This document shows, piece by piece, positions 27,301-60,960 of a stretch of 64,000 nucleotides of DNA; position 1 is the stretch's first letter, and every line of letters begins with the position of its first letter. The notes under the pieces were generated by a model. The model did no database searches. It was given only the letters and a program-made list of their open reading frames with translations, and was not told the DNA's origin. The DNA comes from a virus: the IMG/VR virus record IMGVR_UViG_3300031578_000017. The stretch is one strand, 5' to 3'. The position numbers were made by a program, and so were the translations under genes.

Positions 27301-28365
27301 CTACGTCTTACATTCGTCTATACATTTATCAATTAATTCTCTGCCAGTATCTTTTTCTTTGAAAATATTTTTATGAACCCAATAATCACACGCGACTTTT
27401 AAATCTGTAAAAGATATCAGTTTCATTATATCTTTCCAAGTATCTTTTGAAATATCTCTCATCATATACCATTCAAGTAAATAGTATATCTGTTGTAGAT
27501 CTTTAAATTCAGTATAATATCTATTTTTATTATCACACAATACATCGCAACAATTTTCTATAGCAGATAGATAAATACCTAATTCTACTCCTTGTCTAGC
27601 AAACTCGAATGTTGGAAGATTAGGTAAATCTATATAATTTTTCAATAAATTTTTAGATTTTTCAATTCCTTCGAATCCATTAAAGTTTTCATAAACATGC
27701 ATTGAATCCGACATATGAAAATATTTACCAACATTTATGTTCAAACAATTCGCTATAATTTCTTGAATGACTGTAAATTCATATACATTAATCGCACTCA
27801 TACCAAAAATTAGATCATTTGAGCGAATCACAACACAACAATCCAATACATTATTTCTAACCATAAAATGTATCCAATTAGAACAACAATAATCACGAGT
27901 ATTATCAATCGTACATTCTTTAGCAGGATCCCAAATAGATATAACGGCTTGTCTAGAATTGAAATCTTTAAGTAATTGCTTTACCACAAATTTGATTTGA
28001 TCTACTTCTATAATTTCATTTTTATCATTAAATCCTTTCCAATTTCTAAGACGTGGGCCATATCCGGCACGCCAATCTAACCCATTATCACTGAAATCTT
28101 TAGCTCTAGGAAGAAATTTAGATAAAAAATCCATATCATTTCTTCCAGCTAACACCCATAAAGTCTCAGCCAAAGTCGCAAATGGATTATTTCCTCTTTT
28201 CGGGAAAAGCAATGTTCTTTTTCGGGGATTATTGATTTGGATAAAACAAGGATGAAGTTCTAATGTTTTTTTCTCTCTTACAATTATTTCACTTCCTTCT
28301 GTTAATAATTTTTTAAGAATCAGTTTGATACTTTCCTGTAAATTTTCCGCAATTATTGTAAACAT
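27301..28365 (-). CDS. thymidylate-synthase-fold pyrimidine hydroxymethylase (dUMP type)
   Basis: YGPRL, DQI, SRQAVISIWDP, catalytic C (YCCSN), RSNDLIFGMSAIN, SMHVYE. Confidence 0.8.
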   Translation of the reverse strand: MFTIIAENLQESIKLILKKLLTEGSEIIVREKKTLELHPCFIQINNPRKRTLLFPKRGNNPFATLAETLWVLAGRNDMDFLSKFLPRAKDFSDNGLDWRAGYGPRLRNWKGFNDKNEIIEVDQIKFVVKQLLKDFNSRQAVISIWDPAKECTIDNTRDYCCSNWIHFMVRNNVLDCCVVIRSNDLIFGMSAINVYEFTVIQEIIANCLNINVGKYFHMSDSMHVYENFNGFEGIEKSKNLLKNYIDLPNLPTFEFARQGVELGIYLSAIENCCDVLCDNKNRYYTEFKDLQQIYYLLEWYMMRDISKDTWKDIMKLISFTDLKVACDYWVHKNIFKEKDTGRELIDKCIDECKT

Positions 28366-47781: not shown

Positions 47782-49959
47782 CTAATCGACATCATCACCT
47801 ATTTCTTTTGCTTCAGTTGTATCGTCACTGTCTTCTTCAGAAGCTGGTAAATCACCACCCTCTTTTATTTTATCTATTATGAAATCATATATACTTTTTT
47901 CACCATTTTCTTTTGAAGATTTTTCAAATTCTTCTATGAAACTGATAGCAGAATTTTTTCCTACTCCTAGTTGCATTTTATCTTCCTTAAGACCTGTAAT
48001 TGAGTATGTCTTACCTTCCTTAACTATTACTCCCATCAACAATCCTGTACTTAATAAATTTCTTGCAAGATCGAATCCTTTACTAAAAATTAAATCTGCT
48101 TCACAAATTCTAAATGGTGGAGCAACTTTATTTTTCTTAATCGTAAGTTTAGTTGTACATCCTATTGATTTACCTTTAGTTCCTATCTCACCAGTTCTAC
48201 GTACATCTACACGAACCGATGCATAGAATTTCAAAGCTCTTCCACCAGAAGTTGTTTCAGGTGAATTGTGAACTATGACACCATTTGGTCCACCGACAAT
48301 ATAGTTGTGATTATCTTCAATTTCTAAATCATATTTATATCGTTTTCTACCTTTGGTATGTCTATAATTTATTTCTTTTTTAAGAATTTCTACTGGAATG
48401 TTTTCATTCACAATGTCTATTTCACACTTATTTTCTAATTTAGGAATATTGCAAAATTTTGAATGTAATTTATAATGCATACATTCAGGCACATATTTGG
48501 ATATTGCTTTATGAAAAGAAAATGTTTGTTCACCACCATTAAAATACAATCCTTTTCCAATTTTTACCTGTGGTTTTTTAATTCCTAAAGATTCTATCCA
48601 ATTTGCTGCACAATTTAATTGTTCTTCATTCATCAATTTAGAACAAATTGATGTTCTACCAGCACCCCACAATTCTTTAGTTAGTACATAAGTTCCATCG
48701 TCTAAATACCAAATAGTCAAAGCTAATAAACCACATTCTTTAAATCCAAACCAATCGTTTTTAAATTTATAATTCCCATTACAAATTTCTTTTCTATATT
48801 TTTCTAATCTGATATCTGCATTAGTATCATATCTAAAATTTGTTGTATTGTTTTCTTGCTTTACTTCTCCACCTAAAATTGGTTTAAATAAATTTGCTTT
48901 CCATCTAATATATCCTTCTTGTTCTTTACAATGACCCAACCTAAATCCAGATTTATGATAACTAATTTTTCTTAAAGAACCGTCTCCCAACATAGAACCT
49001 ATAAGTAAATCTTTAAAATATTTACAATCTTTATGTGAATCATAACTTAACAAAAAATCTCCAACTCTAAAATCACCAGCATTTTTTTCTATATATTTTC
49101 CATTGTCACATAAAATCATTTTATGATTAGATGTTACTCTAAATTTAGAATATCCACATTTATTTGGAGCAGTTGTTTTGAATTCTAAAAAATTATCTTC
49201 TACACCATTATTAAACCATCCAATTATGTTTTTAGATTCTATAGTATTTGATTCTTTATTTAAAGATAATACCTTAACGTCTTTTTTCTGATTTACTATT
49301 TTACCGATTTTTTCAGTAGTACCATCTGCTAAACAAATTCGCGAATCATAATCAAAACATCCCCATCGAACTCCAATCTTTTCACGTATTTGATTGATGA
49401 ATATGGCGGTACATTCTGTGCGTGAAATTATTGAAGTCAGTTTTCGCATTGCCTGTGACATTAATCTTGCTTGTAACCCCATATGTGACTCGCCATACTC
49501 ACCTTCTAATTCTGCCCTTGGTACTAATGAAGATACTGAATCTACCACAACTATATCAATTACACCACTTTCAATAAAATGCTGTGTCAATGTTAAACAT
49601 TCTTCGGCATGAGATGGTTGACTTAAAAGTAACTTATCTAAATCCACACCTAATCGTTTACACCAAGCTGGATCTAAAGAATGTTCCATATCACCATACC
49701 ATGCCCAAGCTCCCTGTTTTTGTGCTTGTGCAATCGTAGTCAAAGCAGCAGTTGTCTTACCTGAAGATTCAGGTCCATAAATTTCTATGATACGTCCTTT
49801 AGGAAAACCTCCTACACCTATAGCTAAATCAAGTTGAGGTATTCCTGTTTTCCAAGCTGGTACTATCTTAATAGCCTTTTCTGTCAATTTCATTACTATC
49901 GAATTCTCACTGAACTTTTCGCGAGTCTTCGCAATTAAGTCGTCTAACGAAATTCCCAC
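47782..49959 (-). CDS. recA: RecA recombinase (intein-containing)
   Basis: [55 protein letters not shown]. Confidence 0.95.
48265..49359 (-). mobile_element. 365-aa intein with LAGLIDADG homing endonuclease in RecA
   Basis: begins CFDYDSRI after GVRWG, ends VIVHN before S; [11 protein letters not shown] and IWYLDDG motifs. Confidence 0.95.
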
Positions 49960-51183: not shown

Positions 51184-51936
<753 letters not shown>

Positions 51937-52012
51937 CTCGATTCTCCTTGTTCGTTGACCGTTTACCTGCACTTTACTACAACTGTTTTCTGACAAAAAC
52001 TAACAACTCCTT

Positions 52013-55000
52013 TTAAAGTCCTAACTTTATTACCTTTGATTTTATTGGACCTCTATCTACATATAAAAGGTTATTTCCACGATTTTTCTTAGCGAGAACT
52101 ATGTAACAACAATTCTTAGTGATTTCGTTTTGCAGTTTTTCCCATGCACTTGCAAAAACTGTCATACTACAATCGAACTCTCCATCCGATAAATCGACAA
52201 ATGCCATTTCTCCACCTTTCTTATCTGTCCACTTTTTTATATTCTTAACATATGCTGCGACAACAAGCATAACATCATTTTCGTAATCATCTATTGCGCT
52301 TAAATATTCTGCATCATAATGTGAAATAATATCTACATATCTTTTCAAAGGATTATCCATTACAGCAAAACCATAAATTTGATTTTGAATAAAAATCTTG
52401 TTGAATAAAGATTTCTTAGACTTTTCGCTTTCGAAATCAAAAGTAACATCTCCACTTCCACAATTACTACAAGCAGCAGTTTCTAAATCTTCAGCCTTTA
52501 TTACGCAAGGGAATCTAAACTTACAGTCTGGGCAATAGTATTGTCTAAACACTTTCTTCTCATTTCTACTATCTATAAAATCACTATATATTTCTTCAAT
52601 AGTCTTTTCTTCAATATTGTTGAATGTTCCTGCTAATATTAGATTAACCAAAACTCTAACATTGCAAACCCTTAAATCTATTCTACCCATAAAATCTTCG
52701 AAAGATTTAAACTTACCATTACCTCTTTCTTTTAAGATTTCTGTTATTACTTTTTCTCCCACATTTGATACAATAGAAAATGGTTGTATCACCTTTTGTT
52801 TTCCTAAAACAAAGTTTACATCTGAAAGATTTATATTAGGTCTACTAATCTTTATCTTTAATTTTTTACATTCTTCTAGATATTTAGGCATCATATCTTT
52901 ATCACCAGAATTATAAGACATTAATGATGCCATGTATTCACGTGGATAATATGTCTTTAACCATCCGGTCGTATAAGTTATCAATCCATAAGCTGTTGCA
53001 TGGCTGATGTTGAAACCGTAACCTGCCCACTTTATACACCACGCCCAAAGTTCTCTAGCAGTAGATTCATCAACCTTATTCTTTACGCATCCTTCTATAA
53101 ACCTATTTTCCCACTTTTTAAATTTTTCTAAATCTTTTAACTTTGTTGCCTTTCTAAAATTATCTGATTCTGATCTTGTCATTCCTGCTGCGACAACACC
53201 AATTTCCATTAACTGTTCTTGGAATACTAGACATCCTAACGTATCTCTTAACACTGGCTCTATAATTGGATGCATGTAATCAAAATTTCTACCATTACGC
53301 CTATTAACGTATTCGTCTGCCATTCCTGCCTTCAAGATAGCAGTTCTATATAAACTAATCAACATAACAATATCATAGAAACATTTTGGCTGTAATTTCT
53401 TGACAAGCTCTGCCATTCCTTCTGAAGTTTCTAATTGGAACATTCCTATAATCTTGCCTTCACAAATAGTCTTAAACACTTCTTCATTTTCTAAATCGTT
53501 TAAACATGTATTCCATATATTATCTATTTTCTTTTCACCAACATTTATCATATCTACAGTTGTCTCAATGACATCTAATGTTTGTAATCCTAAAAAATCT
53601 ATCTTTAATATATTTAAATCTTCAAGACCATACATATCCCATTCTGAAACTTTAACAGGCTTTCTTTCATCTGATGCAGTTTCGATTGTAAATGCTGTCG
53701 GAACCCAGTCTTCTAGTTTTGTTGGTGTCAATATCATTCCAGATGCATGTACACCCTTTGCTCTATTAACACTTTCTAACTTTAATGCAGGTTCATAAAT
53801 TTCTTTATTCTCACCTAACCAAATCAATGTTTCTGGACTCATAGGATATTCATCATCGTTAAATTTTCTTGTTTTATCATTAATCTTTTTAGTTACCGCA
53901 TTCATCTCTTGGAAATCGTGTCCTAATACTTTACCTATGTCTTTAATAAGGTTACGTGGTTTCCAATCTTGATATGTTATGATCGCTGCAAATTTTTCTT
54001 CACCATATAATTCCTTAACTGCATTCTTCACTTTTTCTCTGCCGTCTCTACCAAAGTCCATATCGATATCTGGCAATGAAAGTCTATCTTCTGTTAAAAA
54101 TCTTTCAAATATAATGTTAAATCTTATTGGATCTATTTGTGTTATATCCATTAAGAATGCAACTAAACTTCCACAAACTGAACCACGTCCCGGACCTACT
54201 GGTATTTTCATTTCTCTTGCTCTTCTAATAATATCAGCACAGACTAACATATAAGATTCCATTTTTAACTTACCAATAACTCCTCTCTCCATTTTCAATC
54301 TATCTTGATATACATTAGAACATTGTTGTACTGGAGTTAATTTCTTCTGCCAACCAAAATCTATTAACTTATCAAATTCTTCGTGAGGCTTTGCACAAAA
54401 TTCTGGTAAACAAACCCTATCAGTAGGTGTTAAATCTACTTTTTCAATTTTATTAGAAATCTCCACTGAATGTTTCAAACCTAACAACACATCTTCTTCA
54501 CTTAAATAATCATCGTGAAACGCTTGCCATGAGTTATAATTTTGTTCTCCACTCTTTAAATATACTTCATGTGTAGGATAAGTACCATTGTTTTCTTCAG
54601 ATAATGTTTTCTTTCTACTGTAACACTTTACTATATCATGTTCGTGAAAATCTTTTCTATAAATATAGTGGCTATCACAAGTTATAAGCAATTTCCCATT
54701 AAACTTTTTGCAGAGTTTCACAATATACTTATTCAGCTTTCTTTGTATTTCTAAATCGTTTAATGATATTTCAAAATAGAAATCTTCGCCAAATAAATCG
54801 GTAAAGAATTTTATTCTTTCTAAAAGTATTCTCTTCTTAACATCTTTATCTGTATGGAATTTATCCATTTCTTCAAGGTGATTCCAGCCTATCAATCCTC
54901 CTACACATGCAGTAGAACATATTAGCCCTTCTCTATGATCTTTCAACATTTTCATATCTATTCTTGGTTTTTTAAAATAGCCTTTCTCCCACGATAATGC

Positions 55001-55345
55001 TTGCAATGTCTTTAGGTTGAACCAACCTTGATTATTCTTGGCAAGCAAAACTGTGTGAGCATAATTGTATGGAATTGATGATGCTTGGTTTTCTATGTCA
55101 TCTACGTAATACGCTTCTAAACCTGCGACTGGTCTTATGTCTTTACCTTTACATTCTTTAAATAATTCATACACACCACCTAATGTTCCGTGATCACATA
55201 TAGTTACTGTTTTTCTTTTTAATTCTATGGATCTCTTTACAAGATCAGATATTTTTATAATACAATCTCCAACGCTAAAATGGGTATGACAGTGGTGTTC
55301 ATTATACTCAAGATTTTTCACGCAATGCCTTTCCTTTATTGACAA
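52013..55345 (-). CDS. dnaE: DNA polymerase III alpha subunit (family C)
   Basis: PHP HCHTHFS/DHG/DSHY, GPGRGS, PDIDMDF, HASG, LKIDFLG, YGFNISHA, OB fold. Confidence 0.95.
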   Translation of the reverse strand: MSIKERHCVKNLEYNEHHCHTHFSVGDCIIKISDLVKRSIELKRKTVTICDHGTLGGVYELFKECKGKDIRPVAGLEAYYVDDIENQASSIPYNYAHTVLLAKNNQGWFNLKTLQALSWEKGYFKKPRIDMKMLKDHREGLICSTACVGGLIGWNHLEEMDKFHTDKDVKKRILLERIKFFTDLFGEDFYFEISLNDLEIQRKLNKYIVKLCKKFNGKLLITCDSHYIYRKDFHEHDIVKCYSRKKTLSEENNGTYPTHEVYLKSGEQNYNSWQAFHDDYLSEEDVLLGLKHSVEISNKIEKVDLTPTDRVCLPEFCAKPHEEFDKLIDFGWQKKLTPVQQCSNVYQDRLKMERGVIGKLKMESYMLVCADIIRRAREMKIPVGPGRGSVCGSLVAFLMDITQIDPIRFNIIFERFLTEDRLSLPDIDMDFGRDGREKVKNAVKELYGEEKFAAIITYQDWKPRNLIKDIGKVLGHDFQEMNAVTKKINDKTRKFNDDEYPMSPETLIWLGENKEIYEPALKLESVNRAKGVHASGMILTPTKLEDWVPTAFTIETASDERKPVKVSEWDMYGLEDLNILKIDFLGLQTLDVIETTVDMINVGEKKIDNIWNTCLNDLENEEVFKTICEGKIIGMFQLETSEGMAELVKKLQPKCFYDIVMLISLYRTAILKAGMADEYVNRRNGRNFDYMHPIIEPVLRDTLGCLVFQEQLMEIGVVAAGMTRSESDNFRKATKLKDLEKFKKWENRFIEGCVKNKVDESTARELWAWCIKWAGYGFNISHATAYGLITYTTGWLKTYYPREYMASLMSYNSGDKDMMPKYLEECKKLKIKISRPNINLSDVNFVLGKQKVIQPFSIVSNVGEKVITEILKERGNGKFKSFEDFMGRIDLRVCNVRVLVNLILAGTFNNIEEKTIEEIYSDFIDSRNEKKVFRQYYCPDCKFRFPCVIKAEDLETAACSNCGSGDVTFDFESEKSKKSLFNKIFIQNQIYGFAVMDNPLKRYVDIISHYDAEYLSAIDDYENDVMLVVAAYVKNIKKWTDKKGGEMAFVDLSDGEFDCSMTVFASAWEKLQNEITKNCCYIVLAKKNRGNNLLYVDRGPIKSKVIKLGL

Positions 55346-55658
55346 CTAAAGATCTATTAACCAAACTCCTCAAAGAAGAAGATGCTTTAAATTTCACAGA
55401 ATAAGAAATTGGTATTTCTACCATTATTCCTTTGAAATTTTTAAACTTAGCACGTTTCCTCTTACATATATAAAACCTGCCGAACTTTCTTATATTTACT
55501 ACCCCATTTGTCTCTAGATTCTTTTTAATACCATTCATTATATAATCTATGATTGTCTTTACTTCTTGTACTGGTAATTTCATAATCCTAGATAATTCAG
55601 ATACCAATTCTGGATCAGTCTTAGATCCTAACCCTTTTTCTATCTTATAATTTTTCAC
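55308..55658 (-). CDS. HU/IHF-like DNA-binding protein
   Basis: VNIRKFGRF...KFKASSSLR. Confidence 0.85.
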   Translation of the reverse strand: MKNYKIEKGLGSKTDPELVSELSRIMKLPVQEVKTIIDYIMNGIKKNLETNGVVNIRKFGRFYICKRKRAKFKNFKGIMVEIPISYSVKFKASSSLRSLVNRSLVVNKGKALREKS

Positions 55659-56725
55659 TTCTTTTCTCTTTCCATTTTTTCTATTATTTCTTTCTTAAAA
55701 CCTCCATTCTCCATGGAATCTAAAACATCTTCTATGTAATTTTGATAATTGCTTTCGCCATATTTTAACAAACTGCATATCAAAATTGTCTTTCCAAAAT
55801 CTTGCCAGAATGCATCTTCAATTGGATCTATAAATTTATCCATTAACATCCTACAATGATTTTCCAAATCAATCTGTTCTGAATGTACAGATTCTTTGAA
55901 AACAGCACAACGAAGATGTTTTTCAAAATCATATAATCTAAATATATTATCCCAGAAAGCATCTATCAAAAAATCTTGCGGCATTAAATCATTACATTTA
56001 TAATTGTAATCATAAAATTCATTTTTTTCTTCACCGAATTTTGGATTAGCTATACAGAAATAGATAAACCCTTTCTTATTCATCAATGAACACATGCAAG
56101 CATGAAGCAAAGATAAGAAGAAATAATCGTTTACAAATTCTCCATCCAATTGCACTGTTCCAAAATTAGCTATCATATCTAATCTATCGCCAATACGTTT
56201 GAATGTTATGGAAATCAAATCAGGTATATTATTACTATCTTCAAAATCTAATGATGGATCAAATATAATACAACTACTTGTTTCTATGCCACCAGATTCT
56301 AAGTCTTCAAAACATTTCTGCAATTGATCTACGCCCATAGGTTTAACAAAATCTTCAGGATCATCTATTCTAGAATTTGTATTTATTGCTTCTTGCAATT
56401 GATCTGCACCAATCCAAAATCTCATCCTTGGCCCATATGCTCCACGCAATGTTATGTTGTCGTCTGTAAGATTGTTGACATGTTTACTATAATAGCTTAG
56501 TGGAGCCAACATATTGCTACCCTTCAAATTCCAAAGAAAATAAGCTAATCTAAATCCAAGATTTGTATGTTTTGAATTTACAAAACAATCATATATTCCT
56601 AAAGAACCATTTTTCTTAAAGATTATAGGTTCTCCACAAACATAATCTAAATTTTTTGTTGCCAATTTCTTATGCTGTTCATAAGAAATTATTTCTTTAA
56701 TGTTTTCAATCGGAACCACTATCAT
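55655..56725 (-). CDS. degenerate thymidylate-synthase-fold protein
   Basis: LW.LKGSN, GAYGPRMRFW, DQL, IFDP retained; PC changed to PD, RSxD absent. Confidence 0.7.
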   Translation of the reverse strand: MIVVPIENIKEIISYEQHKKLATKNLDYVCGEPIIFKKNGSLGIYDCFVNSKHTNLGFRLAYFLWNLKGSNMLAPLSYYSKHVNNLTDDNITLRGAYGPRMRFWIGADQLQEAINTNSRIDDPEDFVKPMGVDQLQKCFEDLESGGIETSSCIIFDPSLDFEDSNNIPDLISITFKRIGDRLDMIANFGTVQLDGEFVNDYFFLSLLHACMCSLMNKKGFIYFCIANPKFGEEKNEFYDYNYKCNDLMPQDFLIDAFWDNIFRLYDFEKHLRCAVFKESVHSEQIDLENHCRMLMDKFIDPIEDAFWQDFGKTILICSLLKYGESNYQNYIEDVLDSMENGGFKKEIIEKMEREKK

Positions 56726-58122
56726 GTTTTTATGTTTCCTCCTATTTCTTCTTTCATTTTTACTTCAACCTTGTCCTTACTAGCACTGTTTTTGCTTGTC
56801 CTAATAAAAGTCATTTTTGACTTATCTGCCTGTAAAACAAATCCTTTAGCTGCAAAGTCTCTGGTTTTGATAAAATCTATATTATAAATTTCATCTTGTT
56901 CACTTTCATCTGTCAATCCGATACTTATACCAACGTCAATATTGTCAATAATATTCTTTGCAAACGCCAAATCTGATGCTTTCAAATGTTCTTTTTCAGC
57001 TTTTGCAACTGCCATCTGATTAGCTGACCATGTTGGAATTTTGAAATAACGCGCTATTTCTTGCTTGATACCTACAGCTATTTCTAATTGTTTCTGCCAA
57101 TCATATCCACCTTTTAAAATATTCATGTAATCAATCACTATTAATTTCGGCGGCTTATTTTTCTTAATAAATGATTCTATTTCATTCTTCAATATTGTAA
57201 CTGTACAAGATTGAGGAATATCCATTACGTTAAATTTGTATGGATGTTCAGTCATGAACTTATTTACTTTTCTTTCTAAAATATTAAAATGATCTGTAGA
57301 TAATGTGTAGTCTCTAAAGAATTTATAATTGATTCCAGATAATCTGCAATACAATCTTATCATGACCTGACTGGCTGGCATTTCAATAGTCACATACAAT
57401 GCGTCTCCAAAACAAAGAAAGCAATTGTAAGAAAAATCTAAAAGCATTATAGACTTACCACGACCAGGAGGTGCAGAAATTAAACCAAATTCTGATGGAC
57501 GCAAACCACCCATAACATTATCTAATTGTTCTATTCCAGTTTTAATACCTAAGTATTCTCTTGGATTTAATTGTATTTTCATATGTTCTTTTTTGAAATC
57601 TTGGAATTTAGATATAGGATCAGACAATGTGATGAACATTGGTTTTTCTTCTAGATTGCCAGTTATTGACATATAATCTTTAACTGCATAATCAATATAT
57701 TGTTGTCCACCCTCTAGAGCTTTGGTTAGATTATTAAGTATTCTAGATATAGTTGCCTCCATAGTTCTTGCTTTTTCAAGTTTAGCAATTTTCATAATCG
57801 CTGCCATACAAGTTGTCAAATTTGCTTTCTTTTTTAACAACAATGTGCTTTCCCATAATCTTAAAAAAGATTTTCTTAATTTTAATGGTTTAGATTCTAA
57901 GTGAATTTTGAATGCATCTGTATTTAAAACTAAATCTTGACTTTCATAGAATGATATTATTTGTTCATATATCCATTTTAATTTACTGCTACTAAAGAAA
58001 TCAGGTCTTATATTTTCTTTACACTTAACTATTACTTCACTATTTCTTAGACATCCAGCAATTATAATTTTTTCCGATTCTATATCTCTAAAATCGGAAA
58101 CTTTAACTTCACCTTTTTTCAA
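56722..58122 (-). CDS. DnaB-like replicative helicase
   Basis: TGIEQLD...APPGRGKS, TIEM, VIDYMN, ANQ. Confidence 0.9.
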   Translation of the reverse strand: MKKGEVKVSDFRDIESEKIIIAGCLRNSEVIVKCKENIRPDFFSSSKLKWIYEQIISFYESQDLVLNTDAFKIHLESKPLKLRKSFLRLWESTLLLKKKANLTTCMAAIMKIAKLEKARTMEATISRILNNLTKALEGGQQYIDYAVKDYMSITGNLEEKPMFITLSDPISKFQDFKKEHMKIQLNPREYLGIKTGIEQLDNVMGGLRPSEFGLISAPPGRGKSIMLLDFSYNCFLCFGDALYVTIEMPASQVMIRLYCRLSGINYKFFRDYTLSTDHFNILERKVNKFMTEHPYKFNVMDIPQSCTVTILKNEIESFIKKNKPPKLIVIDYMNILKGGYDWQKQLEIAVGIKQEIARYFKIPTWSANQMAVAKAEKEHLKASDLAFAKNIIDNIDVGISIGLTDESEQDEIYNIDFIKTRDFAAKGFVLQADKSKMTFIRTSKNSASKDKVEVKMKEEIGGNIKT

Positions 58123-59054
58123 TTGTATCTCTCTTTCATTCTTTCTACTAATTCTTTATCGCAACTAATGTTTGATTTTTCTAATTCACATTTTTCATCC
58201 TTCATATAAGAACAAAATATATTGTTGAATTTACAATATTTTAGATCCACAATTTTACACCCCTTACCATCTAAAAATTTCCTTATAGAAACTGGTTCCA
58301 ACAACATGCTTGGATTAATTAAAGTTTTTAATTCTACACATTCATTCATCCTTTTTGAAATATAATGTTTAACCACATAACGCCATTTACTCTCACGAAC
58401 CTTCTCTCTAATAAGCTTCATTAGCTTCTTCATATTTAACCTGATCGATAACATTTCTGTTTGTGCTATTGCATCTGGAAAATGAATTTTAAACTGCTCC
58501 ATGTAGAATAATACAAAATCTTTATAGGACCATTCGTTAATATCATCTTTTGTTTGTCCACCTTTTCCTATATTACCACGCAAATTTTCTAACGCATTAA
58601 TTTCTTCATATTCTTGTTTCATTAAATTACAAATTCCATGTCCTATTCTATATTTATCATACAAACATTTTATCTTTTCTAGACCACATAAATATATTCC
58701 TTTATCTACACTAGAATATTTACATTCATTACATGGTTCTATAGAATTATATCTTTTACTTATAATTAAACGAACACTATTATTTGTCTTATGTCTCATT
58801 CTTTTAACAAGACCTCTTTCTATTAATCTAGTTAAAGATTTTTGTAAAGTCTTAACACTTATTCTTAAATTAGATGTTATCGTTTCTTCATCTAACATAT
58901 TAAAATTTAAAATCATTAACATTATTCTAATATCCATCTTTGTTTTTAATCTTAATAATTCATCAAACATATCACTTCCAATAACTATACCCATTTTAAC
59001 CTCCGAACACTTAACTATTTTCGCCACACAAAAGGCTAACATTACACAAGCCAC
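58119..59054 (-). CDS. winged-helix replication/initiator-like protein with Cys clusters
   Basis: N-terminal wHTH (ISVKTLQKSLTRLIERGLV), Cys-rich segments; directly upstream of dnaB; start uncertain. Confidence 0.45.
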   Translation of the reverse strand: MACVMLAFCVAKIVKCSEVKMGIVIGSDMFDELLRLKTKMDIRIMLMILNFNMLDEETITSNLRISVKTLQKSLTRLIERGLVKRMRHKTNNSVRLIISKRYNSIEPCNECKYSSVDKGIYLCGLEKIKCLYDKYRIGHGICNLMKQEYEEINALENLRGNIGKGGQTKDDINEWSYKDFVLFYMEQFKIHFPDAIAQTEMLSIRLNMKKLMKLIREKVRESKWRYVVKHYISKRMNECVELKTLINPSMLLEPVSIRKFLDGKGCKIVDLKYCKFNNIFCSYMKDEKCELEKSNISCDKELVERMKERYN

Positions 59055-59118
59055 ACAGTTAAACGGTCGTAGAACAATCTATGCAAGCGCCGACACTATT
59101 TTTAAACACACACCAACC

Positions 59119-60960
59119 CTAAAAGGTTGGTTTTTTATTCAGTATGTTCAACATATCTTCTAACGATAGTGTTGGCTTAGATCCTAACGATGCACCTAGG
59201 AATTTTTCGAATATCTTTCTCTTAAAACTTAATTTCTCTAGAATCATATCTTCTATAGTACCCTGTGTTACAAGATTAATAACTGTCACTGTATGCTTTT
59301 GTCCTTTCCTATATACACGTCTTATTCTTTGATCTATTTTTGCAGGATTCCAAGGAAGATCAAAATTAACCACATATCTTGCAGCCTGCAAATTTGCTCC
59401 ATACGCCATACTATCGCTACAGATTAAAAATTTATAATCTTCAATTTCTATAAATTTTTTCTTTATCTTTTCTGCTTCTTCTGGTCCAGTCTTACCAGTA
59501 ATAGAAAGACACTTACCATATTTTTCCATCTCTCTTATAATAATTGGAATCATCTTATTGGCAAAGAAACTAAATATAAGAATCTTGTGCTTTTTCCCGA
59601 TATCATTTTCTACTTTATCTTTCAATACTTCTAATTTACCACTCTCTTTTATTTCTGGATCAACTGTTTCTGTTGAATCGCATATTTGAATCAGATAAAT
59701 TAACAATGCTCCTATCTCTGCCATATTAATTTTATTCTGTTTAGATTTATCTTTCAATTCTGCAAGCATACCTTCTCTTGCATCAAGATAAATTTTTCTT
59801 TGCATTTCCGTCATTGGACAAACTTCTGTCATTTCAATAAGTGGTGGTCTATCTTTCCACACTTCATCTACCGATCTTCTTATAATCCAAGATTTAATTA
59901 TCTTCTTTAATCTATTTTCGTTTCTGTGTCCAACCACATTACCAAAGTAATCACGAACCAGATAATTGTTTTGAAAACTATGGTACTCACCAAGCAAACC
60001 TTTATGAACAAAAGTTAAAGAAGGATATATCTCGTCAATTTTGTTCTCAATAAATGTACCTGACATTGGTATGACAATTCTATCTCTAGGCATTTCTTCA
60101 GTGATTTTTATAATTGCTTTTGTAGTGATTGCTTTTATATTCTTAACTCTAGATGCTTCATCTATAAATATTCCTTGAAAATGTTGCCCAATTATTATAT
60201 CTTTAAATTTATCAATAACTTCAAAATTAACTATTGCTATCATTTTATCTACTATTTGTGAACGAAACCTAACAAGAGGATCATACCTTTCACGTTTACA
60301 TTTTTCATTTCTATCACAATTCTTGCAACATATGGTCCTTAAATTCAATGTATTTGTTATTCCCAGTGGACAAACAAAATCTTTATAAGAATCAAATACA
60401 GATACTTGCTTAGGATCAATCTTTGTAAAACTTAATATTTCATCTCTCCATTGATATTTTAATCTATTTGGACAAACAATTAAGAATTTCTTATAATCAT
60501 CTTCTATTGCCTTACATATAATTCCAATTGCTTCAATCGTTTTCCCTAATCCCATATCATCACCTACCAGATATCTCTTTGCTTCAATACACACATTTAT
60601 AGCCTGTGCCTGATAAGATAAAACTTTTTTTGTTTCATCATCTGTCCATAGTTTAGATTCAAATTCAATATTTTGTTTTGCATTTTCTATTCTTTTCATT
60701 TTACCTTTATATGTCTTTTCTGCATTTAATACTTTTTCTGAAAAGAATAATCTTATATTGGATTCTAAACAAATCTTACGCAATTTATCTATATGATGTA
60801 TAAAAGTTACATATTGATCCCTTCTTTTTTCAACAGCAGAGATTACTGGCATTTGCCTTAAACTATCTACTAATTTGTCTTTCATGTGAGAGTTCTTGCA
60901 TTTAGCTGTTAACAAAAGCTCCCAATTTGGATTTAAAGTTGTGTATATTTTTGATGCCAT
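59119..60960 (-). CDS. SNF2-family helicase/ATPase
   Basis: DDMGLGKT, IDEASR, SGTFIEN, GANLQ, FDLPWNP..DQR..R..R.GQ. Confidence 0.9.
   Translation of the reverse strand: MASKIYTTLNPNWELLLTAKCKNSHMKDKLVDSLRQMPVISAVEKRRDQYVTFIHHIDKLRKICLESNIRLFFSEKVLNAEKTYKGKMKRIENAKQNIEFESKLWTDDETKKVLSYQAQAINVCIEAKRYLVGDDMGLGKTIEAIGIICKAIEDDYKKFLIVCPNRLKYQWRDEILSFTKIDPKQVSVFDSYKDFVCPLGITNTLNLRTICCKNCDRNEKCKRERYDPLVRFRSQIVDKMIAIVNFEVIDKFKDIIIGQHFQGIFIDEASRVKNIKAITTKAIIKITEEMPRDRIVIPMSGTFIENKIDEIYPSLTFVHKGLLGEYHSFQNNYLVRDYFGNVVGHRNENRLKKIIKSWIIRRSVDEVWKDRPPLIEMTEVCPMTEMQRKIYLDAREGMLAELKDKSKQNKINMAEIGALLIYLIQICDSTETVDPEIKESGKLEVLKDKVENDIGKKHKILIFSFFANKMIPIIIREMEKYGKCLSITGKTGPEEAEKIKKKFIEIEDYKFLICSDSMAYGANLQAARYVVNFDLPWNPAKIDQRIRRVYRKGQKHTVTVINLVTQGTIEDMILEKLSFKRKIFEKFLGASLGSKPTLSLEDMLNILNKKPTF

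Follow-up and report, generated by a model that had tools for sequence, protein, structure and literature searches.

To our knowledge, every characterised member of the thymidylate synthase (TS) superfamily is a cysteine-dependent enzyme that acts at C5 of a pyrimidine, whether it is ThyA, a dCMP, dUMP or CMP hydroxymethylase or one of the recently found 5-hydroxy-dCMP synthases. The Cys, Glu, His and Tyr residues are 'extremely conserved' across MilA, T4 CH, SPO1 dUH and TS, and enzymes of the TS fold, among them MilA, are obligate dimers in which the subunits share active sites (PMC5175136). A 2026 survey of phage TS homologs likewise treats Cys146 as conserved in the 5-hydroxy-dCMP synthases that it compared with E. 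coli ThyA (PMC13326640). Here we describe a phage gene whose product is predicted to adopt this fold and lacks the catalytic cysteine. The gene lies at 55655..56725 of the IMG/VR stretch IMGVR_UViG_3300031578_000017 (64,000 nucleotides (nt), the window hereafter) and encodes a 356-aa protein, P0001; a second TS-like protein of the same window, P0002, is encoded at 27301..28365. All coordinates are positions in this stretch, and all genes and features listed lie on the minus strand.

P0001 has a predicted TS/MilA-type fold

No Pfam family matched P0001 at E values up to 1, and the gathering threshold of PF00303 was not reached, although a precomputed PF00303 match is present in four distant members of its family. 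The best PHROG hit was 'thymidylate synthase' (1.3e-14), the best sequence match in the PDB was MilA (E 2e-4), and BLASTP aligned P0001 with P0002 over the N-terminal 130 aa (E 3e-11). The initial annotation of this DNA, made by eye, had aligned the two products with each other, and all of the motifs that it quoted are present. To compare them as families, we aligned 27 relatives of P0001 of 30–83% identity (alignment A1) and, separately, 24 canonical phage hydroxymethylases together with E. coli ThyA and SPO1 gp29 (alignment A2). Comparison of A1 with A2 by hhalign gave a probability of 99.9% (E 1.5e-35) over 259 columns, extending into the C-terminal domain.

An AlphaFold2 model of P0001 built from A1 (predicted local distance difference test score 87.4, predicted template modelling score 0.89) showed a TS fold, so that the outcome named beforehand as fatal to the annotation, no TS fold, did not occur. 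The model matched MilA in Foldseek (E 5e-13, probability 1.00) and in VIA-align, where residues 4–355 were superposed with Z 27.8 and a root-mean-square deviation of 3.0 over 289 residues; ThyA chains scored Z ~17 over ~238 residues. An ESM Atlas look-up and BFVD were consistent with the assignment. Following the TS core, the model contains a C-terminal domain of five helices (254–355), which align to MilA through residue 329 and to the canonical phage relatives through column 346. The predicted structure and the alignments thus confirm P0001 as a protein of the TS/MilA-type hydroxymethylase fold and a distant paralog of P0002. No cultured relative was found: the best tblastn matches of P0001 in phages were canonical TS or hydroxymethylase genes, with 25–27% identity in the N-terminal part.

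The TS catalytic set is replaced

To follow the catalytic residues, we used E. coli ThyA (from the MG1655 record), T4 gene 42 and SPO1 gene 29 as references, assigned positions by profile and multiple alignments, and counted family columns over 75 full-length members. The position of the catalytic cysteine (E. coli C146, also Cys in T4 gp42, SPO1 gp29 and P0002) is occupied in P0001 by Asp169 of the motif NIPDLIS; the alignments place its codon, which was checked, at 56219..56221. Cysteine occurs at this column in none of the 75 members, which carry Asp in 54 (72%), Asn in 8, Glu in 6, Ser in 4, Thr in 2 and Leu in 1. The preceding Pro168 is conserved, so that of the 'PD' motif, whose conservation the initial annotation had singled out for checking, the proline is kept and the aspartate is conserved in 72%.

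That annotation had also noted the loss of the RSxD motif, which the alignments bear out together with the loss of the cysteine: NFGTVQ of P0001 aligns on E. coli Q165-R166-S167-C168-D169, placing Phe188 at Arg166 (a column with 44 Tyr and 29 Phe in the family) and Gly189 and Val191 at Ser167 and Asp169, both variable columns. The losses go further than had been noticed. The catalytic Glu58 has given way to Tyr62 (Tyr in 57/75, 76%) on the LW.L.G.N helix, which also carries the family-specific Arg59 (63/75, 84%; Arg59 to Tyr62, 56540..56551). E. coli Arg21 corresponds to Lys37 in the BLASTP alignment, in a column that is variable in the family; Arg126', which acts in trans, corresponds to Glu148, and none of the 75 members has Arg there. 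The 3′-OH ligands His207 and Tyr209 are replaced by Lys229 and Gly231, again in variable columns. With the nucleophile, the general base Glu58, Asp169, the 3′-OH ligands and the 5′-phosphate clamp of Arg21, Arg126', Arg166 and Ser167 all replaced, P0001 is predicted to be incapable of the known mononucleotide chemistry: judged from its residues, it cannot methylate, hydroxymethylate or hydroxylate dUMP or dCMP by a known route. The view that the protein is a pseudo-TS, with the TS fold and without TS-type chemistry, is therefore supported.

One element of base recognition is kept. The resemblance of EFVNDYFF to the FRNDY motif of T4 gp42, pointed out by eye, holds in the alignments: the pair Asn199-Asp200 (56126..56131) falls on E. 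coli F176-N177 and T4 gp42 N178-D179, with Asp200 in the Asn177 column, which is acidic in 73 of the 75 members (58 Asp, 15 Glu). An aspartate at the Asn177 position is a feature of cytosine-specific hydroxymethylases (T4 gp42, MilA) that P0001 shares; by itself it does not place P0001 among these enzymes, because the cysteine is absent. We also considered a 5-hydroxy-dCMP synthase of the RB69 gp48 type and rejected it, as its signature combines Asp169Asn with Cys146, and P0001 has Val191 in a variable column and no cysteine.

Outside the catalytic centre, P0001 retains the N-terminal hydroxymethylase framework (LW.L.G.N, DD, GAYGPR.R.W.G, DQ and FDP..D...S..[IV]P) and carries two family-specific features. 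After the YGPR.R.W motif lies an insert of about 20 residues (within residues 105–131, 56333..56413) with near-invariant G106, D108, E112, N117, K128, P129 and G131, which hhalign shows to be absent from the canonical relatives. It is the best-conserved family-specific element: N117, K128, P129 and G131 are each conserved in 95–99% of the 75 members, as against 72–84% for the positions of the old catalytic centre. The second feature is the pair His270-x-Arg272 (FEKHLR, 55910..55918) in the first helix of the C-terminal helical domain, with His in 68/75 and Arg in 60/75.

The cysteine-less family is conserved and probably old

A word-indexed search retrieved 39 relatives of P0001, and an exhaustive HMMER pass over 1.8 billion representatives retrieved 53 at E<1e-10. 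In all, ~75 full-length metagenomic relatives were available, with identity down to ~28% and the frame open in every one. The 27 sequences of A1 share 26 invariant columns; over the 75 members G98, W104, Q134 and P157 remain invariant and K128, P129, G131 and D160 nearly so, giving 15–20 near-invariant positions in the family overall. Selection was judged by these counts and by comparison with neighbouring genes, given that the closest relative with DNA available (L016) has 64% protein identity and synonymous sites are saturated. For the same pairs of contigs, the TS-like protein is 32–39% identical, DnaB 32–41% and HU 30–40%. At the level of protein conservation, these comparisons show that the cysteine-less family is under purifying selection, and the relaxed selection in homologs that would have marked a decaying gene was looked for and did not occur.

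In a maximum-likelihood tree, the cysteine-less proteins group together as one clade (SH-aLRT 100), whose stem measures 1.4 substitutions per site. This clade falls within the phage hydroxymethylases, and its sister group is not formed by the hydroxymethylases of its own phages, which make up a separate group (99). The family is thus a monophyletic, previously undescribed branch of the phage MilA/SPO1-gp29-type pyrimidine hydroxymethylases. We had considered P0001 as a recent duplicate of P0002 and rejected this, since the tree sets the family apart on a long stem; the tree and the alignments suggest that the family arose once, long ago, and has been conserved since. Nothing relevant emerged when the literature was searched for phage TS folds that lack the cysteine or are pseudoenzymes, and for the classical 'inhibitor of thymidylate synthetase'.

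The TS-like gene lies in an apparent replication operon

As the initial annotation had it, the gene lies between those for HU and DnaB and far (27 kb) from the active copy. Upstream is a DnaB-type replicative helicase (56722..58122; PF03796 2e-20, PF00772), downstream an HU-family DNA-binding protein (55308..55658; PF00216 5e-14), followed by a DnaE-type DNA polymerase III alpha (PolIII-alpha) of 1110 aa with PHP, NTPase, finger, HhH and OB domains in Pfam (52013..55345), whose identity to any phage record does not exceed 30%. The dnaB stop codon overlaps the start of the TS-like gene (ATGA), with AGGAGG 12 nt upstream, and the stop of the TS-like gene overlaps the GTG start of the HU gene (GTGA). 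The first gene of the apparent operon, o58119 (58119..59054), encodes a conserved basic protein of 311 aa with cysteine-rich stretches. In a consensus scan, the only terminator-like hairpin of the block (59112..59131) lies upstream of o58119, between the SNF2 gene and the run of o58119, DnaB, TS-like, HU and polymerase genes; none was seen inside the operon.

To examine synteny, we searched 5 IMG/VR loci, 21 metagenome loci and one contig of a metagenome-assembled genome (MAG) with the proteins of the window by tblastn. The order DnaB, TS-like, HU-like, PolIII-alpha was found in all ~20 loci with flanking sequence, within a wider conserved run of SNF2, o58119, DnaB, TS-like, HU, Pol, two small unknowns, RecA, dUTPase, Rad50 and Mre11. 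At loci where BLAST missed HU, the TS-like gene is followed by an open reading frame (ORF) of 105–160 aa that has the same HU-like motif at its N-terminus. Of the 8 loci listed, 7 have this ORF overlapping the end of the TS-like gene, and in L023 the two are 28 nt apart. By gene order and overlap, these loci show the TS-like gene as a fixed and apparently translationally coupled member of a replication operon across an uncultured phage clade. The HU-like protein has an N-terminal extension with the motif D-[EP]-E-[FL]-[IV]-[SA]-E and accompanies the TS-like gene in every related locus.

Charge sets the family apart as well. Its members have a median isoelectric point (pI) of 4.8 and a median net charge of -19 (range -5 to -38), compared with 6.1 and -4.5 for canonical relatives, and the operon partners are basic (pI 9.1 for DnaB, 10.4 for HU and 9.2 for o58119).

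Several further features of the block were recorded. The o58119 gene is conserved upstream of DnaB in 13 related loci, between SNF2 and DnaB; neither Pfam nor PHROG matched its product, which we regard as a candidate for an initiator or a helicase loader, and PHROG likewise returned nothing for five unknown genes nearby. The gene that immediately follows that of the polymerase, at 51184–51996, encodes a very acidic protein of 270 aa (pI 4.05) with a weak SAP-domain match and no BLAST match in relatives. An intein that bears a LAGLIDADG homing endonuclease interrupts the RecA gene (47782–49959; PF00154, PF14890, PF03161), and RecA of the relatives is without this ~365-residue insert. The polymerase of the window is one uninterrupted frame, whereas the PolIII-alpha match in L002, L003, L023, L025 and L030 is split near residue 780 into two pieces 0.4–1.4 kb apart; L023 has two HNH-endonuclease-like ORFs beside and within the polymerase region.

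The same phages carry an intact hydroxymethylase

P0002 is a predicted dUMP hydroxymethylase, as judged from PF00303 (7e-22, 78 bits), MilA (7.6e-23) and its residues: it keeps Cys, Glu58, Arg126, Arg166-Ser167, Asp169, Asn177 and His207/Tyr209, and has Asp in place of Leu143. An intact, Cys-bearing hydroxymethylase is found away from the TS-like gene on all five long contigs (the window, three IMG/VR contigs and a phage contig in a Bacteroidales MAG), at a distance that varies between relatives. These enzymes keep Glu58, Tyr94, Arg/Lys126, Cys146, Arg166, Ser167, Asp169, Asn177, His207 and Tyr209 and have Leu143Asp, the signature residues being those given for dUMP hydroxymethylases in PMC13326640. 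Phages of this clade are accordingly predicted to make hydroxymethyl-dUMP and to replace thymine by hydroxymethyluracil.

Two contigs deserve separate mention. In a complete relative (IMGVR_UViG_3300009529_000001, L007 / L011, ~46.5–48.8 kb), the intact hydroxymethylase carries an intein-like insertion of ~365 aa that starts with CLSG and ends with VHN|S, four residues before the Asn177 equivalent and hence in the active site. The 49.5-kb contig CAZJYD010000014.1 (L037), from a phage of this clade, was binned with an uncultured Bacteroidales MAG whose own ThyA is encoded on a different contig (G006:C40); the binning is a weak clue to the host.

Possible roles of P0001

The explanation that we favour, tentatively, is that P0001 is a co-opted binding protein without TS-type catalysis that works with the replication machinery. 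An ancestral hydroxymethylase would have been relieved of catalysis and kept as a non-catalytic binding protein, retaining the cofactor-side half of the old cleft and the acid at the base-reading Asn177 position and gaining a conserved loop. It would act together with the co-translated basic replication proteins, most plausibly the HU-like protein and/or DnaB and PolIII-alpha. We prefer this reading because the catalytic job is covered by the intact enzyme, the old catalytic centre is less conserved than the new loop, and the position of the gene is tied to replication proteins. The initial annotation had suggested a replisome channelling factor; the replisome part of that suggestion gains from the invariant synteny and the translational coupling with DnaB, the HU-like protein and PolIII-alpha. 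Three observations weigh on the other side. Phage replication modules often inherit their gene order, which need not reflect a physical association of the products; SPO1, too, keeps a gene for an active hydroxymethylase beside its replication genes; and the conserved polar residues left in the old cleft (R59, Y62, Y97, D169, D200) and in the new loop (N117, K128) would equally fit ligand binding or a new active site. A more specific proposal, to which we give distinctly less credence, is that P0001 and a TF1-like HU protein form a physical link between hydroxymethyl-dUMP supply, or hydroxymethyluracil recognition, and the DnaB–PolIII-alpha fork, with P0001 as a dedicated replisome subunit. Here the HU neighbour is suggestive by analogy with SPO1.

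The same polar residues could belong to an enzyme, with the fold rebuilt for a new chemistry on a substrate without a free 5′-phosphate and 3′-OH, such as a pyrimidine flipped out of (hydroxymethyluracil-containing) DNA, a nucleoside, a base or a folate-like ligand. Such an enzyme would draw on Tyr62, Arg59, the new Lys128 loop and the acids that occupy the Cys146 and Asn177 positions. What has been lost is precisely the set of clamps for the free 5′-phosphate and 3′-OH, as a switch to a polynucleotide or to a substrate without phosphate would demand; the cofactor-side half of the cleft and the loop to the nucleophile are kept nearly motif for motif (FDP..D...S..[IV]P[C>D]); the base-reading position is acidic in 73/75; and the superfamily does evolve new C5 chemistries, the 5-hydroxy-dCMP synthases being an example (PMC13326640). 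However, the old centre is under-conserved for true catalytic residues, with Asp at 72% (and Asn, Ser, Thr or Leu in 20%), Tyr62 at 76% and Arg59 at 84%, a net charge of about -19 is unfavourable for an enzyme acting on DNA, and Pfam and PHROG searches recognised no cofactor-binding or metal motif in P0001. We consider a new enzyme, although it is the main rival of the favoured reading, rather unlikely, and the scatter of residues at the Cys146 column weakens in particular the earlier idea of a new Asp-based chemistry.

A further alternative is that P0001 is a dead partner, pairing through the canonical TS dimer interface either with the phage hydroxymethylase, to regulate it or tether it to the fork, or with host ThyA, to poison dTMP synthesis. 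A hydroxymethyluracil phage must suppress host dTMP synthesis, and the β-strand framework of P0001 is predicted to be intact. Obligate dimers with shared active sites are the rule in this fold (PMC5175136), an intact hydroxymethylase co-occurs on 5/5 long contigs, and there is precedent for dead paralogs that regulate active ones (PMC3663545). As the family is without the trans-acting Arg126', no complete active site would form in a canonical heterodimer, just as the action of a poison subunit requires; such a heterodimer would cripple the active subunit and leave inhibition or tethering as the only outcomes. For the phage's own enzyme the missing arginine thus predicts inhibition, not activation or retuning, and the intact hydroxymethylases keep Arg/Lys126, as homodimers should. 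Both points weaken the earlier proposal that heterodimerisation changes specificity. Moreover, the family is not sister to the hydroxymethylase of its clade and stands on a long stem, so that compatibility of the interfaces is no given; the TS-like gene is tied in position to DnaB and HU, whereas its distance from the hydroxymethylase gene varies; and host ThyA dimers formed before infection would probably be beyond the reach of a poison subunit. Taken together, pairing of this kind seems improbable.

That P0001 is a decaying, functionless relic of a duplicated hydroxymethylase gene, as the loss of all catalytic residues and the absence of a Pfam match might suggest, is scarcely credible and was rejected as contradicted by the conservation data, namely a frame open in ~75 relatives down to 28% identity, invariant columns, a conserved insert, a fixed position and translational coupling.

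A conserved branch that lacks the whole catalytic apparatus and is kept as tightly as the adjoining helicase would bring to a well-studied fold either a pseudoenzyme of a new kind or a new chemistry. Its co-translated site between DnaB, an HU/TF1-like protein and a polymerase makes P0001 a concrete candidate for wiring the supply of modified nucleotides, or the recognition of modified DNA, to the fork; if the fork link were true, it would be a genetically defined tether like that long postulated for the T4 dNTP-synthetase complex. The family also calls for caution in annotation, as some sources already label relatives of P0001 'thymidylate synthase'.

Comparison with known systems

Metabolic or base-recognising enzymes are known to serve as structural replisome subunits independently of their catalysis, as E. 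coli thioredoxin does with T7 DNA polymerase and the vaccinia uracil-DNA glycosylase D4 with the polymerase E9, and these pairs provide a working analogy for a TS fold fixed in a replisome operon. Thioredoxin and D4, however, remain active enzymes with biochemically shown roles, whereas P0001, judged from its residues, has lost TS catalysis and is a putative replisome subunit.

SPO1 TF1, an HU-family protein, prefers hydroxymethyluracil DNA according to Grove et al. 1996 as cited in PMC3969353. The HU-like protein described here, which is co-translated with the TS-like protein, is likewise homologous to HU, and its phage is predicted to produce hydroxymethyl-dUMP; by this analogy it may be a counterpart of TF1. 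We know of no TS-fold partner of TF1.

MilA, the CMP 5-hydroxymethylase of Streptomyces rimofaciens (PDB 5JNH, 5B6D, 5JP9), is the best whole-length structural match to P0001, the C-terminal five-helix domain included, and the two proteins are alike in having an acid at the Asn177 position. MilA keeps Cys155, Glu68, Arg31, Lys133', His216 and Tyr218 (PMC5175136), whereas P0001 has none of these and carries the 20-residue insert in addition. The T4 dCMP hydroxymethylase gp42 has, in FRNDY, the same 'ND' pair at the base-specificity position as P0001 has in FVNDY; unlike P0001, it possesses the nucleophilic cysteine, RSND and the His/Tyr pair, and it is without the C-terminal helical domain.

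The SPO1 dUMP hydroxymethylase gp29 and P0002 belong to the same superfamily branch as P0001, share its N-terminal framework and C-terminal domain and likewise come from phages of the hydroxymethyluracil type, and the gene for gp29 lies among replication genes, as does the TS-like gene here. Yet gp29 and P0002 are complete enzymes, whereas P0001 belongs to a separate clade, set off by its stem of 1.4 substitutions per site, in which the catalytic set has been erased.

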